Shown here in pieces: positions 11,347 through 38,408 of a stretch of DNA of 64,000 bases. The notes under the pieces were generated by a model. That model saw nothing but the letters and a program-made list of their open reading frames with translations. It was not told the DNA's origin and made no database searches. This DNA is from a phage. Each line of letters opens with the position of its first letter. Within the stretch, counting starts at the first letter, position 1. The position numbers and the translations under genes were made by a program. The DNA is taken from the sequence record PZ338878.1. The stretch is one strand, 5' to 3'.

Positions 11347-13662
11347 ATGTCAACTACAATTACTAATTTACCCGAAACATCAAAAGTTAATGGTTCTGAT
11401 TACCTGGTTTTAGACCAACCTGATAAGACTGTTAAAAGCACAGTTTCCAACTTTCTTACTAACACTGGGGTGGTTGCTGCGGGGAGTTATACACCTAGAA
11501 CATTAGCCGATAGATTTGCTGATGTATTTAACGTTAAAGACTTTGGTGCAATTGGTGATGGAGTTACCGATGATACAGCAGCACTGCAAGCAGCAATAGG
11601 CGCAGCAGCAACTTCTGGTGTAAAACTGATATGGCCTGCTGGTACTTACTTGTTCACCAAACTTAGTAGCACTATTAGATATGGAGCATACAATTGGGAG
11701 GCAATAGGTCACGTAGAGCTTATCAGCACAGCTAACCCTGTCGGTGAAGCAGGTCAGGCTATACTACTAAGCGGAGCTTATAGTTCAGATCTGCTAAGTT
11801 TCGAGGAATATGATGTTAAGAAAGGTGATAGATCTATTACCTTAAATAAGGTACTTGATGCATCTACAAAAGACCTCATCGTGATTCGTAATAAGCACGT
11901 TGTACGAGGTGATCATCGTGGTAGCTGGCAAGAAGGTCAAATATCAGGTATTACAAAAGTAGAAGGAAATACCATTATGTTAGACCAGAATGCGCAGTAT
12001 TACTATAGGTCTGGTGGTAACTTCCATTTCACAGTTACTGGTGCGGAAAGTGGACGCAAGTTTTCTGCTGCTGAGTTTTCTGTTACCAACCCGCCACGTG
12101 ATGCATTATATCGTATCACAGGAACAACCGGTGTTAATGCTGGTATAACAAAGGTTGTAACAGCATATGATGATGCAACTAAGACCTTCACCATAGGTTC
12201 TGATGCAAACACAGGGTTCCCTAATACACCAGCAGTTGGTGATCAGTTCTTACTAGATAGGAAAGCAGAGGCTTGGTTGGTATACCCAGCAACTGTACAC
12301 ATTTCTGGTGACTTCGTACTTAAGACACAGCGTGGCCTTATTACAGATGCAGAAAAAGGTTCTCTCGCATGGGATGGACTTGTTCTAAGATATTGCCGTG
12401 ACAGCAAGATACAACTTGGTGGTGTACACAATTTCCCTAACTCAGGTGTTACAGTGAATATGTCATTGCGTGTTCATGTCAATGTAAGTAATATTACTGG
12501 GGCTAACAGGGTGTGGGATGGGTCAGGAGGCTCTGGTAATGCGGTATCCATTAACACCAGTAGCTTCTGCATAGTAGAAGGTCTGTCTTCGACAGGTTGC
12601 CGAAGGGGTGTAGATGTCACCGGTAGTAACTGGTCTAGTTTCTATAACATGATTAAAGACATCTCTGTGAGAGGGGGTGGCGTAGGTTTCACAGGTCAAT
12701 CTATCTTCCCACAGATAGGGTCTGCTGCTGATTGCTATGGAGTGGGCAGTCATGGCGGAGCTGTAGGTACAATGTATGATGGATGTGATTTAGTGGATTG
12801 CACTATACCATTTACCATACGTGGTTTTGATGAGAGTATTCAGAATAGTACAATTCGTGGGTATTGCTCTCAGCCAATTCGCCTGTATTACGCAAGCGGG
12901 TGCTACATTAACAATGTTACATACTCTGACGGTTTCACAGAAACTAAAGGGAGCACTAGCGAGTGGCAGACGATTACAACGACAGAGTACCGTAAGTTAC
13001 GACCAATTAGTTTCTTGACTATCACAGATACTTGGTCTTTTGAAACACCAACTGTAGTGGAGAATTGTGTTGCCAAATCTATTACTCGCTCTTTTGCTTA
13101 TGTAACAACAAAGGAAGAACAGCTAGATAACTTGGTACTTAAGGGTTGTATAGCTTATGTGGATAACTATGGCGCATCTACCACTGATGCAGCTTTCTTG
13201 CAAGTGATTGGTACTCCAGAGTTCCTAGGTAATATAGGTATGTTTGGTGGATGTGATCTTATTTTAGTTGGTTCAAACAACACAGTAAGCTCAAGTCAAA
13301 TGGTGAGAATTGCCTCCGCTTGTACTGGTATCATCCGCAGAAGTGAGACATTGTGGGAAGTAAGGATTAATTCAGGAGAGCAGAAGCGTGTGCCTCTTTC
13401 GAAAACATCTTCTATGCTTCTTGTAGATGTAGCTAACATGGGCAACCCAGGTAACTATAGTGCTTGCAATGTAATCATGGGTAAGGACGATGCAACCGAT
13501 TACTCGCCACTAAGCTCCTTCAACAAGAATAAGGTAGAGTTGCGAGATACTGGAGGGGCAACTGCCGGCACTCTTGCCTTATGGTTTTCTGGTAACAAGC
13601 TAGGAATAACTAATGGTTTCGGAGGAAAAGCTAATATACTTATAGATATTAGATCGTTCTAA
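11347..13662 (+). CDS. tailspike protein with pectate-lyase-like beta-helix domain (depolymerase 1)
   Basis: FGAIGDGVTDDTAALQAAI motif typical of pectate_lyase_3 / right-handed beta-helix tailspikes; fibre-type N-terminal motif. Confidence 0.7.
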   Translation: MSTTITNLPETSKVNGSDYLVLDQPDKTVKSTVSNFLTNTGVVAAGSYTPRTLADRFADVFNVKDFGAIGDGVTDDTAALQAAIGAAATSGVKLIWPAGTYLFTKLSSTIRYGAYNWEAIGHVELISTANPVGEAGQAILLSGAYSSDLLSFEEYDVKKGDRSITLNKVLDASTKDLIVIRNKHVVRGDHRGSWQEGQISGITKVEGNTIMLDQNAQYYYRSGGNFHFTVTGAESGRKFSAAEFSVTNPPRDALYRITGTTGVNAGITKVVTAYDDATKTFTIGSDANTGFPNTPAVGDQFLLDRKAEAWLVYPATVHISGDFVLKTQRGLITDAEKGSLAWDGLVLRYCRDSKIQLGGVHNFPNSGVTVNMSLRVHVNVSNITGANRVWDGSGGSGNAVSINTSSFCIVEGLSSTGCRRGVDVTGSNWSSFYNMIKDISVRGGGVGFTGQSIFPQIGSAADCYGVGSHGGAVGTMYDGCDLVDCTIPFTIRGFDESIQNSTIRGYCSQPIRLYYASGCYINNVTYSDGFTETKGSTSEWQTITTTEYRKLRPISFLTITDTWSFETPTVVENCVAKSITRSFAYVTTKEEQLDNLVLKGCIAYVDNYGASTTDAAFLQVIGTPEFLGNIGMFGGCDLILVGSNNTVSSSQMVRIASACTGIIRRSETLWEVRINSGEQKRVPLSKTSSMLLVDVANMGNPGNYSACNVIMGKDDATDYSPLSSFNKNKVELRDTGGATAGTLALWFSGNKLGITNGFGGKANILIDIRSF

Positions 13663-13752
13663 TGCCACTAATCAAATCAGTTAAGCAAAGTGCTGTACGC
13701 CAGAACACACAAGAGGTTATTCAGTCAGGACGTGACACTAAACAGGTTATAA

Positions 13753-13775
13753 GACCCCTCTTCGGAGGGGTTTAC
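13753..13775 (+). terminator. terminator-like hairpin
   Basis: ACCCCTC-TTCG-GAGGGGT followed by TTT, downstream of the tailspike stop. Confidence 0.45.
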
Positions 13776-13796
13776 TAGAAAAACAAAGAGGTACTT

Positions 13797-13946
13797 ATGA
13801 ACGAATTATTCTACCAAGGCGGTATTGCCCCAGGTACTACTGCCATTAGTCTTAGTGCTGCTGTACTTGTGCATTCAGCGGGTTCTGTAGACCTTGGGGA
13901 ATTAGCTGTATCTTGTGATTTAAAAAGTAATGAGAACGCACCATGA
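13797..13946 (+). CDS. small hydrophobic protein (49 aa)
   Basis: ATG 6 nt after AAAGAGG; hydrophobic core IAPGTTAISLSAAVLVHSAG; stop overlaps the start of the next ORF; not in ORF track because under 60 aa. Confidence 0.3.
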   Translation: MNELFYQGGIAPGTTAISLSAAVLVHSAGSVDLGELAVSCDLKSNENAP

Positions 13947-14188
13947 GAAAATTTTTAATAGGTATGTTTTGTACATATCCTGATAATAAAGTCAGTTCTA
14001 CTAAAGTTTGGAATGCTATTGGTATGATTGTTATGTCCAGTATGTTTATTTATTTGGGAATTGATAAAGAAATTCCTGAATGGATGGGCTGGGCTTTTGT
14101 TTTTATGATCACACCATCCAGACTAATGAAGAATTTAATAGATTTACGTTGGGGCAGATCACCTGCCCCTGATAAGGAGGATAACTAA
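13943..14188 (+). CDS. small membrane protein (two predicted TM helices)
   Basis: 81 aa with two hydrophobic stretches (IGMIVMSSMFIYLGI, WMGWAFVFMITP); ATGA coupling to downstream gene. Confidence 0.4.
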   Translation: MRKFLIGMFCTYPDNKVSSTKVWNAIGMIVMSSMFIYLGIDKEIPEWMGWAFVFMITPSRLMKNLIDLRWGRSPAPDKEDN

Positions 14189-15675
14189 TGGCAGATTATG
14201 GTTTAACAGATGCTGGTTTTGTAATTCCAACGTTTGATGATATTTTAAATAATTATATGACAGCATTGAAAAACACTTTCGGTGCAGATACAGCTACATC
14301 TGAAGATACTGTCTTTGGTCAACTGTTTCGTATTATTGCATATACAGATTACACACTTTGGGAAGGTATGCAAGGTGTTTACAATACCCAAACCTTAGAT
14401 GGTGCAGAAGGTATTTACCTTGATGAAATTTTCTCTAAAAGGGGTTTTTATCGTAAAGCTGCTTCTGCTGGTAGTGGTTATGCTTATGTTAAATCTAACA
14501 ATAAGGCAGCTTGGACTTATGAACTAAGCACAGATGTTTATTTTAATGCCGATAACGATTTGACATATTATGTCAGTGCACCAACAATGTTGAATGCTAA
14601 GATTGGAGCATATACCATTTCTAAAGCAAACGCAACAGCTTCTGGTGAAACTTCTATTACTTTCTACATTCAAAGTGCTATTGATGGTGGTCTTAACAGT
14701 AAAACATTAAGTCCTAGCAATACAAACTTTATTGTAGATCTCACGAATTTCATTAAAGCTAACGTATCAACAACAGATCGTGCTTTAGTATGGAATGATG
14801 CTAGTAATGTTTACATGGGTTATAATCCAGAAGATAATGTTAATCCAATAGGTCTAGTAACACCAGTGAAATTTTATGCATCTATTGCCATTGGTACAAA
14901 ATGGAGTGAAATTCCAGTTACGTGTTCAGACGTTGGTTATAATCCAGTAGGTACAGAAAGTATTACAGGTATTTCTTCAACGTTTACAGGCTTTTTAGAT
15001 ACAGGTAACTTCTATCCGTTCTCTCCAGGTACAGATGTTGAAACAGATGCAGAATTCCGTTCTCGTTTCAATGATAATATGGATGAAGCTAATGCTGCTA
15101 CTCGTGCTGCTATTGTTAAAGCTCTATTACTGACAGACGGTGTGACAAAGGTTAAGATTTATGATAACCCTACACTACACGATCAGGAACATGCTCCAGC
15201 TATGACATTTCAGACTATTGTGTATGGTGGTACAGCAGAAGAAGTTGCACAGGTTATTTATAATACTAAGCCTATTAACACCTTAACTTATGGTACGACA
15301 GCAATTACTATCATAACAGAAGATGGTGGTCAAGAAGTAATTCGTTTTTCTCCTGGTGATAATGCGGAATACTCACTTAAACTGGTATATCAAACTGGCA
15401 ATGGTAGTGTGTTAAGTACAACAGAAAGGGAAAATATTGTTTCTGCTCTTGCAAACTTACAGGCTTATTTTGAATTAGGCTCAACAGTAACTAACGATCA
15501 GATAAAAGGTGTAATTTATTCTGCACTTGCGTTCGGACGCTTGACTTCTCTCCGTGTTTATGTTAAACTTAATACTGAGGATGACAGTAAATATAATGAG
15601 GGAGATATCACTCCAGCGTACAATGTTGTACCATCCTTTGACCTTGATAATATTTCCTACGAGTACGGAGTCTAA
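14188..15675 (+). CDS. baseplate J-like protein
   Basis: 495 aa; position after gp25-like and before gpI-like/fibre genes; N-terminal region resembles gpJ/gp47 family. Confidence 0.5.
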   Translation: MADYGLTDAGFVIPTFDDILNNYMTALKNTFGADTATSEDTVFGQLFRIIAYTDYTLWEGMQGVYNTQTLDGAEGIYLDEIFSKRGFYRKAASAGSGYAYVKSNNKAAWTYELSTDVYFNADNDLTYYVSAPTMLNAKIGAYTISKANATASGETSITFYIQSAIDGGLNSKTLSPSNTNFIVDLTNFIKANVSTTDRALVWNDASNVYMGYNPEDNVNPIGLVTPVKFYASIAIGTKWSEIPVTCSDVGYNPVGTESITGISSTFTGFLDTGNFYPFSPGTDVETDAEFRSRFNDNMDEANAATRAAIVKALLLTDGVTKVKIYDNPTLHDQEHAPAMTFQTIVYGGTAEEVAQVIYNTKPINTLTYGTTAITIITEDGGQEVIRFSPGDNAEYSLKLVYQTGNGSVLSTTERENIVSALANLQAYFELGSTVTNDQIKGVIYSALAFGRLTSLRVYVKLNTEDDSKYNEGDITPAYNVVPSFDLDNISYEYGV

Positions 15676-15677
15676 AA

Positions 15678-16307
15678 ATGGCAGTGAGTGTTGACCATGT
15701 GACAACGTGGGATAGTATCAATGAAGATGTTAAAGACCTACTGATTGAAGATTTTAAATCTTCTCCGAACATTGTCAAACTACTCTATATCATTTCTAGC
15801 GAAAAACAAAAGATAGATCAGGCAATGATCTATCTTGCCAAACACCGCTTAATCTCTACTGCAACTGGTAAGTATTTAGATCTTATTGGTGAAGAGATGG
15901 GGATGGAGAGAAATGGTGCTACGGATGAAGAGTATCGTACAATATTAAAAATCAGGGCTTATCGTGTTGCGTCTTCTGGTACGCGAGATGATATCATTGA
16001 TATGTTCGCTCGTTTTACAGGAACAGAAAAAGAAACGATCAATACATACGTTGGATTAAATAAAACATTCGACGTATTCTTTTATAATTTGTGTCTACAA
16101 TCCGATCAGGCAGTAGCACAGTTACTTAACGTTTTCCCGATCCTAAGTAGTTATCGCTTAGGTGCGAAAGCGGGTGCAGCCTTTGGTTTCACTTCCTATT
16201 ATGCCACAAAGCCACCTCATGGTATAGGTGGTTTAGGTTCTCTTTACACAGAGGCTGAAGGAGATGATACAGGGCGAATGACTATGCTGATAGCTCAAAT
16301 AGAATAA
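15678..16307 (+). CDS. baseplate protein (gpI-like by position)
   Basis: 209 aa directly downstream of the J-like gene. Confidence 0.4.
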   Translation: MAVSVDHVTTWDSINEDVKDLLIEDFKSSPNIVKLLYIISSEKQKIDQAMIYLAKHRLISTATGKYLDLIGEEMGMERNGATDEEYRTILKIRAYRVASSGTRDDIIDMFARFTGTEKETINTYVGLNKTFDVFFYNLCLQSDQAVAQLLNVFPILSSYRLGAKAGAAFGFTSYYATKPPHGIGGLGSLYTEAEGDDTGRMTMLIAQIE

Positions 16308-17874: not shown

Positions 17875-18216
17875 ATGGAGCTAACAGAAGTATGGGATAT
17901 CGCTAAAGAGGCGATTATCCCTCTTATTGGTGTAATCTGGGTGGTCTTCAAACAGAAGATAGATGATATAGCAAGTGATTTGGATAAAATGGAAGACAAA
18001 TACCGTGAACTAGAAAAGAAGTTGGTGTTTGTTGAATCCACTTATGCTACCAAAGCAGAACTTGCTCAAATGCTTAACCAGATCAACTCTACATTAATGG
18101 CAAATAATACTGCCTTAGAACAGAAGATTGAAAAAATAATGGATTTAAAAAATGCTCCTGTTCAATTAATGCTAGAGGAGATTACGAAGCGCACACAAAG
18201 TAAGGACAAAAATTAA
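17875..18216 (+). CDS. hypothetical coiled-coil protein
   Basis: 113 aa; N-terminal hydrophobic segment then charged helix; ATGA-type coupling to next gene. Confidence 0.4.
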   Translation: MELTEVWDIAKEAIIPLIGVIWVVFKQKIDDIASDLDKMEDKYRELEKKLVFVESTYATKAELAQMLNQINSTLMANNTALEQKIEKIMDLKNAPVQLMLEEITKRTQSKDKN

Positions 18217-37898: not shown

Positions 37899-38408
37899 TT
37901 AGCGATAGAATTGATGTTCTTTGTAGCGGTACACTAGAACCATATCTTTTTCCCAGTGTGCTCTTATTGTAGATTTTTTAAAGTATAATGCTCCTTTTGT
38001 AATATCTAATGCAATTCGTAATTCTGGAAAATGGTTATCGAGATAAAGTAGACGTTCTGCTATAGCTTTAGCGTCTTTCCACTTATCGTGTTCCATAACG
38101 TTGAATGTCTTCGTGTAAGAGAATTGTCCTTTTTGAAACAAAACTTCTTTTATAGTATCAGGGAAATATGAATCTCTCGCCCTATTCAATACTACATTAC
38201 CAACAGCAGACATACCGCGCTTTCCTTGATTACGACTTTCTGCATAGATTGCACAAGCTAATAGATTTTCTTTACTATCACGCTTTGTACACTTGTGAAC
38301 TACTTTAGCAGTTTTTACGTTTGCAGCTTCGGCTTGCGCCACAACAGGTGTAAATGTAAAAGCAGTTAAGGATAGTAACGCAATTGCGACAAAGGTTTTT
38401 ATTGACAA
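37899..38408 (-). CDS. secreted cell-wall hydrolase, SleB/Hydrolase_2 family (candidate endolysin)
   Basis: N-terminal signal peptide (MSIKTFVAIALLSLTAFTFTPVVAQA); CAIYAESRNQGKRGMSAVGNVVLNRARDSYFPDTIKEVLFQKGQFSY resembles SleB-type hydrolases. Confidence 0.65.
   Translation of the reverse strand: MSIKTFVAIALLSLTAFTFTPVVAQAEAANVKTAKVVHKCTKRDSKENLLACAIYAESRNQGKRGMSAVGNVVLNRARDSYFPDTIKEVLFQKGQFSYTKTFNVMEHDKWKDAKAIAERLLYLDNHFPELRIALDITKGALYFKKSTIRAHWEKDMVLVYRYKEHQFYR

Follow-up and report, generated by a model that had tools for sequence, protein, structure and literature searches.

The 64,000-nucleotide (nt) stretch of phage DNA analysed here (sequence record PZ338878.1; hereafter the window, with positions counted from its first letter) carries, at 13797–14188 on the plus strand, two short overlapping open reading frames (ORFs) of 49 and 81 codons between a tailspike gene and a baseplate J-like gene. 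This locus is the downstream boundary of a tailspike-exchange hotspot. The best explanation of the whole, which we consider reasonably probable, is that the 49-codon ORF and the DNA just upstream of it are scars of tailspike-cassette imports, and that the 81-codon ORF is a core gene whose product is a candidate holin, a protein that sets the moment of host lysis.

The source phage is a phi92-like myovirus of the Stephanstirmvirinae, and the window spans its late and replication region; in DNA comparisons, the conserved parts of the window are 98–99% identical to Justusliebigvirus phages (alia, ECGD1 and BME3). An initial annotation of the sequence had described the two ORFs as a pair of small hydrophobic membrane proteins inserted between structural genes. 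The ORFs are indeed present at 13797–13946 and 13943–14188, both with ATG starts and joined by an ATGA stop/start overlap; the first is preceded by a good ribosome-binding site (AAAGAGG, 13785–13791, 5 nt before the ATG), which is kept in the relatives that carry this ORF, and the site does lie between a tailspike gene (PF12708 and PHROG tail spike matches upstream) and a J gene (Baseplate_J downstream). The notion of an inserted pair has to be given up: the 81-codon ORF belongs to the fixed core, and it is the DNA upstream that varies. Nor do the two genes form a unit, as their evolutionary histories are wholly different and most relatives have the 81-codon gene alone.

Comparison with relatives indicates that the 81-codon gene is a core gene of phi92-like phages and the original holder of the slot immediately 5' of the J-like wedge gene, whose start codon it overlaps with its own stop at 14188 (TAATG). 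Its product matches phrog_1322 over residues 1–80 (4.7e-27) and is the homologue of phi92 gp144, to which it is identical except for the N-terminal residues. The first seven or so read MRKFLIG in the window and MVKEKNGFKKFIRG in phi92, placing the cassette boundary within the first codons. The phrog_1322 family carries the annotation 'membrane protein' and includes phi92 gp144, phAPEC8 gp094 and PVP-SE1 gp41. In all Stephanstirmvirinae examined, including phi92, phAPEC8, outra and ESCO13, the gene stands directly 5' of the J-like gene. Klebsiella phage KP2025 has the order 206-residue baseplate gene, 81-residue homologue, J; the metagenomic contig L035 has sheath initiator, phrog_1322 gene, J, and in L027 two extra genes lie between the sheath initiator and the phrog_1322 gene. 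The family members in metagenomic relatives with the same slot are only about 26–30% identical to the 81-residue protein. Because the slot is kept in KP2025, L035 and L027, the fibre and tailspike genes of phi92-like phages must have been inserted upstream of the 81-codon gene, and not the reverse. The gene is under purifying selection: between the window and Phapecoctavirus, the proportion of synonymous differences (pS) is about 0.5 and that of nonsynonymous differences (pN) 0.054, giving a pN/pS of about 0.1. The conserved slot in KP2025 and the metagenomic relatives, together with this selection, contradicts the proposal that the gene is a moron acquired between structural genes.

Beyond this slot, the gene is found inside the tail-fibre cluster, directly 5' of a large fibre gene, in Vequintavirinae (FV3, PVP-SE1), in Aeromonas phage phiA047 and in several metagenomic contigs; the rV5-like phage EdH4 carries a homologue as well. 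The family is small, with 16 clusters at 50% identity in 1.84 billion proteins. Its conserved positions are S18, K21, an invariant E46–W47 in a short loop, L61 and G71, and its C-terminal tails are variable in length and highly charged. In ECGD1, ESCO5 and EC_OE_11 the 81-codon gene bears the label 'structural protein'.

The hydropathy profile of the 81-residue protein contains one clear transmembrane segment at residues 22–40 (Kyte–Doolittle mean 1.71) and a second, weaker hydrophobic segment at residues 47–65 (0.93). AlphaFold2 predicts a helical hairpin of residues 19–41 and 46–70 with modest confidence (mean predicted local distance difference test score, pLDDT, 66). In the description of phage BME3, DeepTMHMM assigned a class II holin topology to an 81-residue protein (PMC12210895). 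On this topology, the product would span the inner membrane as a helical hairpin whose two termini face the cytoplasm, with a periplasmic loop of about six residues that holds the invariant Glu-Trp pair, and with a charged C-terminal tail.

We consider the 81-residue protein a candidate holin or holin-like lysis protein, a reading that comparative sequence evidence favours to a modest degree, with a class II-type holin as the best fit. It would act most like a class II holin, yet it belongs to no described holin family. We base this assignment on the recurrence of the family between endolysin and spanin genes in two lineages, the helical-hairpin topology, the charged C-terminal tail, the position in a late operon, and the lack of any recognised holin in these phages.

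The first of the two lineages is L025, a distant relative with an orthologous baseplate module, whose J-like gene is 40% identical to that of the window. Its genes run in the order sheath initiator, Amidase_3 endolysin without a signal sequence (phrog_435, 1.2e-38), phrog_1322 member (4.3e-18; 36% identical to the 81-residue protein of the window), Rz-like inner-membrane spanin (i-spanin; phrog_1152, 3.4e-20), overlapping lipobox ORF and J-like gene, and the phrog_1322 member is the sole non-spanin membrane protein of the cassette. The second is L022, an unrelated 83-kb contig, where a protein with four transmembrane segments is followed by a GH108 endolysin (phrog_315, 8.3e-30), the phrog_1322 member (5.8e-23), an Rz-like i-spanin (phrog_89, 7.7e-7) and an overlapping lipobox ORF. 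The same endolysin/spanin sandwich in two distant lineages would be hard to explain for a protein with no part in lysis. Within the structural gene block of alia, a hydropathy scan singled out the 81-residue protein and a 113-residue protein as the only annotated small proteins with a hydrophobic segment.

In the sequence of events that we propose, the 81-residue protein would be made late together with the tail proteins, as the position of its gene in the structural operon suggests, and would build up in the membrane. At a set time it would permeabilise or depolarise the membrane, giving endolysins encoded elsewhere in the genome access to the cell wall or enabling them to attack it. The published genomes of rV5 and the phi92-like phage BME3 were described without a holin homologue, with candidates proposed from topology only, and these phage groups include therapy candidates. 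The phi92 gp144 family (phrog_1322) would offer a concrete holin candidate, backed by synteny and testable by standard lysis assays.

A number of observations weigh against a holin. Among the curated holin families of Pfam, NCBIfam and the PHROG lysis category, the 81-residue protein has no match; Pfam scans of both ORFs and 29 family members, and NCBIfam scans of both ORFs and two members, returned nothing significant. In about 11 of the 13 lineages sampled, the gene lies among baseplate and tail-fibre genes with no lysis gene nearby, and the endolysin gene of the window is 24 kb away on the other strand. The L022 cassette has other holin candidates, and its phrog_1322 member could be an antiholin or regulator. 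A hydropathy scan of alia found several other small membrane proteins in the genome, and a different candidate, gp129, was proposed as the holin in the rV5 paper. Holin calls based on topology have failed before, for Mu gp19 and gp20 (PMC9239132). Besides the weakness of the second hydrophobic segment, the PVP-SE1 homologue is annotated with one transmembrane domain, and the AlphaFold2 model is of low confidence. The structure search made with this model was uninformative: Foldseek against BFVD retrieved one family member (8e-8), and the best named match, 'Holin/antiholin', was not significant (E = 0.21).

Two further families were considered for the 81-residue protein and rejected. DUF2644 gave weak matches in precomputed tables and a best E of 0.036 in our own scan, and is not mentioned in the literature searched. 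Identity with the Mu releasin, a family defined in PMC9239132 by DUF2730 and a single transmembrane domain with the N-terminus out and the C-terminus in, was set aside because the protein has no DUF2730 match and a different predicted topology. The CRISPRi-ART paper reports screens on T4, T5, SUSP1 and PTXU04; for EdH4 it holds only a few individual guides and nothing on the homologue of the 81-residue protein.

The phrog_1322 gene recurs beside genes for a coiled-coil protein with one transmembrane segment and a protein with four, in PVP-SE1 (L014, 2641–3710; gp43, gp42 and gp41), in L028 (3201–4267) and in L022 (3416–5297). The neighbours in PVP-SE1 and L028 belong to phrog_5345 and phrog_7451; those in L022 are analogous, unmatched proteins, with the endolysin gene in between. 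Together with these two neighbours, phrog_1322 may form a conserved membrane-protein trio in lysis control.

The strongest competitor of the holin reading, possible in our view although clearly less probable, is that the 81-residue protein is tied to the tail, anchoring or helping the assembly of baseplates or tail fibres on the cytoplasmic side of the inner membrane, or that it is a superinfection-exclusion protein, encoded beside the receptor-binding genes, that protects the infected cell or the progeny. In most lineages the phrog_1322 gene lies directly 5' of a wedge or tail-fibre gene, with start and stop codons often overlapping or closely spaced, and in Vequintavirinae and phiTE-like contigs it is found near two other membrane proteins inside the tail-fibre cluster. 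The conserved extramembrane motifs of the family, given above, suggest a specific binding partner. A tail-assembly factor does not readily account for a gene that has twice independently come to lie between an endolysin and a spanin pair. In addition, the electron cryo-microscopy (cryo-EM) paper on phi92 never mentions gp144, and the baseplate components listed there exclude it. As for superinfection exclusion, almost nothing of the protein would be periplasmic, apart from the loop of about six residues, which speaks against the blocking of an incoming phage.

The DNA between the tailspike gene and the 81-codon gene has a different character. We propose that tailspike cassettes were imported from unrelated phages one after another, and that two scars of these events remain between the tailspike gene at 11347–13662 and the first conserved gene. 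The tailspike itself (771 residues, plus strand; PF12708, 4.8e-12; phrog_14558, tail spike, 3.7e-55) occupies the position of the phi92 gp143 endosialidase, but has another, pectate-lyase-like receptor-binding body. Over 11347–16307, relatives match at the DNA level on the flanks only, with a coverage of at most 56%, and no close DNA match to the tailspike body exists among 177 related phage records, in which the flanks alone match. The pattern is that of a conserved anchor with an apparently swapped receptor-binding body. The N-terminus of this tailspike, MSTTITNLPETSKVNGSDYLVLDQ..., is also the start of the first ORF at the matching position in phage DIJ07P2.

The first scar would be the beginning of a small ORF whose usual place, in K1E/K1-5-like phages, is behind the endosialidase gene. 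A 38-codon ORF at 13662–13778 on the plus strand overlaps the tailspike stop codon with its start (TAATG) and runs at its end into a hairpin. It matches residues 1–28 of the 52-position profile of phrog_2423 (4.7e-10), so that 13662–13748 corresponds to the first 87 nt of the phrog_2423 ORF, broken off after 28 homologous codons. The intact ORF is found in K1E/K1-5-like podoviruses (Vectrevirus), where it begins within the endosialidase gene, 23 nt short of the gene's end, and extends past it; in ULINTec6, aligned with the window remnant, it is intact at 49 residues. About 85 nt of 13662–13748 match many Vectrevirus records with 86–93% identity, at or just past the 3' end of the endosialidase gene.

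The second scar would comprise the hairpin, the ribosome-binding site and the first part of an Ackermannviridae/G7C-type tailspike gene. The hairpin (13752–13773, plus strand) is GC-rich, with a 9-bp stem and a UUCG loop, and folds with −15.3 kcal/mol; a 61-nt segment containing it has a z-score of −1.7, and 11 of 200 shuffled sequences fold equally well. It had been called terminator-like, which holds for the stem and loop; only three T residues follow on its 3' side, and a terminator scan does not list it. In nieznany and tuntematon, the homologous hairpin is followed by TTTTTT. The same hairpin followed by TAGAAAAACAAAGAGGT stands 5' of the fragment in eight of the nine relatives examined, SKA64 being the exception, and also 5' of the full tailspike gene in Kuttervirus GG32. 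In ECGD1, the stem shows a compensatory change from CCCCTC/GAGGGG to CCCCGC/GCGGGG. The hairpin appears to have come in with the tailspike 5' region and may be a weak terminator or an mRNA-stabilising stem. An Rfam scan of 13300–14500 gave nothing near any gathering score.

The 49-codon ORF behind this leader is, to judge by its homologies, the decayed 5' remnant of an Ackermannviridae/G7C-type tailspike gene that was taken over from an unrelated family of phages. Of the eight PHROG families that it matches (best 6.2e-12), seven are tail, tail spike or tail fibre families, and the profile matches align to approximately positions 60–94 of tailspikes of 550–770 residues. A tblastn search with the ORF returned 265 phage records, in most of which the match is a tailspike gene of a Kuttervirus or a G7C-like phage; just 24 records contain 80% or more of the fragment. 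Codons 1–9 correspond to tailspike residues 1–9 and codons 10–40 roughly to residues 63–94; codons 41–49 form a tail without homology to the tailspike. Homology to the full tailspike gene of GG32 runs from the upstream hairpin to window position 13918.

In nieznany, tuntematon, vB_Ec-G1 and PD114, this slot holds an undeleted form of 102 residues. It starts with MNEMFSQGGKGSTGILTNKQ, ends with DLKSNENAP or DLKSNENAL, and is nearly identical to residues 1–95 of CBA120 TSP1 (PDB 4OJ5; 3.7e-49); it also matches G7C gp63.1 (4QNL; 4.9e-44), as well as CBA120 TSP3 and TSP4. These matches identify it as a bare N-terminal D1 domain. Relative to this form, the copies of the window, alia and ECGD1 lack, in the DNA alignment, exactly 159 nt (53 codons, residues 10–62) and stay in frame; at the junction, 13823/13824, codon 9 of the long form (GGT) is followed directly by its codon 63 (ATT). 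The 49-codon ORF would thus once have coded for a D1 anchor domain of about 95 residues, lost 53 internal codons, and now be free of protein-level constraint. Because 53 of the approximately 95 residues of the domain are gone, the product of the window copy is not expected to fold as D1. No receptor-binding or enzymatic body follows the remnant, as the ORF ends after 49 codons. Most relatives have nothing in this position; phi92, phAPEC8, outra and ESCO13 are among those without the fragment.

The same junction, GG|IAPG at the protein level, is present in the Phapecoctavirus DIJ07P2 (L018, 4501–4650). A Justusliebigvirus (the phage of the window) and a Phapecoctavirus thus share the deletion junction, and members of both genera also carry the 102-residue form. 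This would reflect either transfer of the module from genus to genus or repeated deletion at a short GGT microhomology.

The relic and its downstream neighbour have contrasting histories. Over the 120 nt shared by nine phages (codons 10–49), the relic has seven variable sites, all of them nonsynonymous and none synonymous; the probability of this outcome is about 0.13 under neutrality (74% nonsynonymous sites) and about 3e-5 at the level of constraint of the neighbouring gene. The relic is nearly identical between genera with long-diverged core genes and shows no protein-level constraint. Since it is near-identical across genera that differ at about half of the synonymous sites of the neighbouring genes, and since all its substitutions are nonsynonymous, we interpret it as a scar of recombination that has been exchanged recently. 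About 134 records contain a close homologue of the 81-codon gene, versus the 24 with at least 80% of the fragment, and DNA similarity to many relatives starts exactly at 13943.

A further remnant is seen in SKA64 (L017, 4279–4623), where the slot directly upstream of the phrog_1322 gene holds a chimeric ORF of 114 residues. Residues 1–52 are a fragment of a T7-type holin (phrog_920, 8.4e-21), fused in frame to the 3' piece of the tailspike D1 fragment. The chimera speaks for the arrival of a tailspike cassette from a T7/K1F-like podovirus, with part of the downstream holin gene attached. Cassette ends from three or more unrelated phage groups have thus piled up between the tailspike at the gp143 position and the core gene that follows it. 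The scars record traffic of tailspike cassettes into one myovirus slot from Ackermannviridae/G7C-like, SP6-like and, in SKA64, T7-like phages, and place a sharp boundary of recombination at the opening codons of the 81-codon gene. Public records carry the 49- and 102-residue ORFs under the names 'tail protein' or 'tailspike'. As relics and not receptor-binding proteins, they should not be counted in tailspike-based host-range prediction.

One feature of the relic calls for a separate explanation. Its three variants, of 49, 102 and 114 residues, are all open to the same ATGA junction and the strong ribosome-binding site is kept; the 81-codon gene has a weak Shine–Dalgarno sequence of its own here (GAG), and fragment-free relatives (outra, phi92) have a different sequence upstream of it. 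Ribosomes finishing the 49-codon ORF may re-initiate on the 81-codon gene, which would keep the relic frame open. The openness of all variants to the ATGA, together with the weak Shine–Dalgarno sequence, suggests, and does not prove, that the relic ORF is held open since translation of the next gene depends on it. Against such coupling, there are just three independent ORF variants, and the chance that all are in frame is about 1/9.

The same observations could speak for a relic that is kept for a function of its own, either as free D1 (the 102-residue form) capping a docking site on the branched fibre apparatus, or as a translated leader that sets the dose of the downstream protein. The 102-residue form, as a complete D1 that ends exactly at the domain boundary, would suit the former, and the in-frame variants and retained ribosome-binding site the latter. 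We think this unlikely, given the seven of seven nonsynonymous substitutions, the incomplete domain in the window copy, the dispensability of the fragment in most relatives, and the small number of independent variants, which leaves the in-frame pattern statistically weak. More speculative still is a combined scheme, in which the relic, as a translated leader with a strong ribosome-binding site, would set the dosage of a holin from phrog_1322, then a newly recognised holin family ancestral in the baseplate operon of a large group of phi92-, rV5- and phiTE-like myoviruses, so that a host-range swap would retune lysis timing.

It is very improbable that the two ORFs form a functional membrane-protein pair, such as a holin and antiholin gained together as a moron: they share the ATGA overlap and the upstream hairpin and ribosome-binding site, but the 49-residue product is an acidic fragment (net charge −4) of a soluble tailspike domain, with a best 19-residue Kyte–Doolittle mean of 1.32, below the usual 1.6 for a transmembrane segment, most relatives with the 81-codon gene lack the fragment, and its history is horizontal and unconstrained where that of the 81-codon gene is vertical and constrained. 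Of the initial annotation, then, hydrophobicity holds for the 81-residue protein and not for its neighbour; similarly, the idea of a holin is retained for the former on comparative evidence, and that of an antiholin is dropped for the latter, a tailspike D1 fragment.

The scars of tailspike-cassette imports and the candidate holin lie in a phage whose other lysis genes are dispersed. A SleB-like endolysin is encoded at 37899–38408 on the minus strand (phrog_938, endolysin, 1.7e-20; the homologue in alia is annotated as endolysin). Its N-terminus, MSIKTFVAIALLSLTAFTFTPVVAQAEA, is a signal for secretion or a signal anchor, and the enzyme is the probable, unlinked functional partner of the candidate holin. 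None of the ORFs adjoining it codes for a membrane protein or transmembrane segment, and because the small ORFs beside the endolysin lack such segments, we take the lysis genes of this phage to be scattered. In alia, an Rz/Rz1-like spanin pair lies beside the terminase gene. No holin is annotated in the alia record, and a holin-family scan of six other small membrane proteins of alia and of an annotated 'hol-like' protein gave no lysis-family match.

The 113-residue protein encoded at 17875–18216 on the plus strand, the homologue of phi92 gp149, is labelled 'lipoprotein' in relatives but contains no cysteine and so offers no site for lipidation. At its N-terminus, a transmembrane segment is flanked by acidic residues on the N-terminal side and by KQK on the other; an acidic coiled coil of some 85 residues comes next. 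It has a weak match (E = 0.0022) to phrog_5345, the family of PVP-SE1 gp43, which is encoded two genes upstream of the phrog_1322 member. A role as i-spanin was ruled out, as alia has a proper Rz/Rz1-like pair elsewhere. The protein resembles the Mu releasin in its topology, with the N-terminus out and the C-terminus in, but differs in having no DUF2730 match, by which a role as releasin was likewise ruled out.

The gene order of the tail module is the same as in phi92, from whose cryo-EM structure the structural roles are taken (PMC13450770). It begins with a 958-residue fibre protein (counterpart of gp141) and a 719-residue protein with non-contractile-tail-sheath-like domains (gp142). After the variable tailspike, its debris and the 81-codon gene comes the J-like baseplate wedge gene (14188–15675, plus strand), which codes for a 495-residue homologue of gp145, a protein assigned to the wedge in phi92 (Pfam Baseplate_J, 3.5e-11; phrog_6, 2e-46). 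It is followed by a second wedge protein (counterpart of gp146), fibre III (gp147), a fibre assembly protein, the 113-residue protein and a colanidase.

Compared with known systems, the relic is closest to the D1 anchor of Ackermannviridae and G7C tailspikes (CBA120 TSP1, 4OJ5; TSP3, 6NW9; G7C gp63.1, 4QNL), which it resembles in its codons 1–9 and 10–40, and it shares its hairpin and leader with Kuttervirus. It differs from these proteins in that 53 internal residues and the receptor-binding body are missing, the last nine residues are unrelated, and the host phage belongs to another subfamily. Modular exchange of tailspikes with conserved N-terminal anchors is well described in Ackermannviridae (PMC8432352; PMC11414711). 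There, conserved 5' anchors flank swappable receptor-binding modules, whereas here the anchor is only a truncated relic in another subfamily, beside SP6-like and, in SKA64, T7-like relics. The relic is an ordinary product of such exchange, notable only for crossing phage families and for its mislabelling.

The direct homologue of the 81-residue protein is phi92 gp144, grouped with phAPEC8 gp094 and PVP-SE1 gp41, with the same position before the wedge gene and a difference in the first seven or so residues. As a lysis protein, it would be most like the class II holins, such as the phage 21 S68 pinholin and T7 gp17.5, in its small size, two predicted helices with cytoplasmic termini, charged C-terminal tail and late-operon position. 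The partner endolysin of class II holins has a secretion or signal-anchor sequence, as does the SleB-like endolysin of the window. In contrast, no sequence relationship to class II holins is detectable in the 81-residue protein, and a dual-start motif is not conserved in the phrog_1322 family. For the S68 sequence, scored alongside, the order of helix hydrophobicity is the reverse of that in the 81-residue protein, in which the first helix is strong and the second weak. In T4, the holin gene t adjoins the tail-fibre genes, far from the endolysin gene e, and its product has one transmembrane domain and a large periplasmic domain. With no homology to t, the 81-codon gene is alike in being unlinked to the endolysin gene, at the edge of a tail-fibre block, in a large virulent myovirus.

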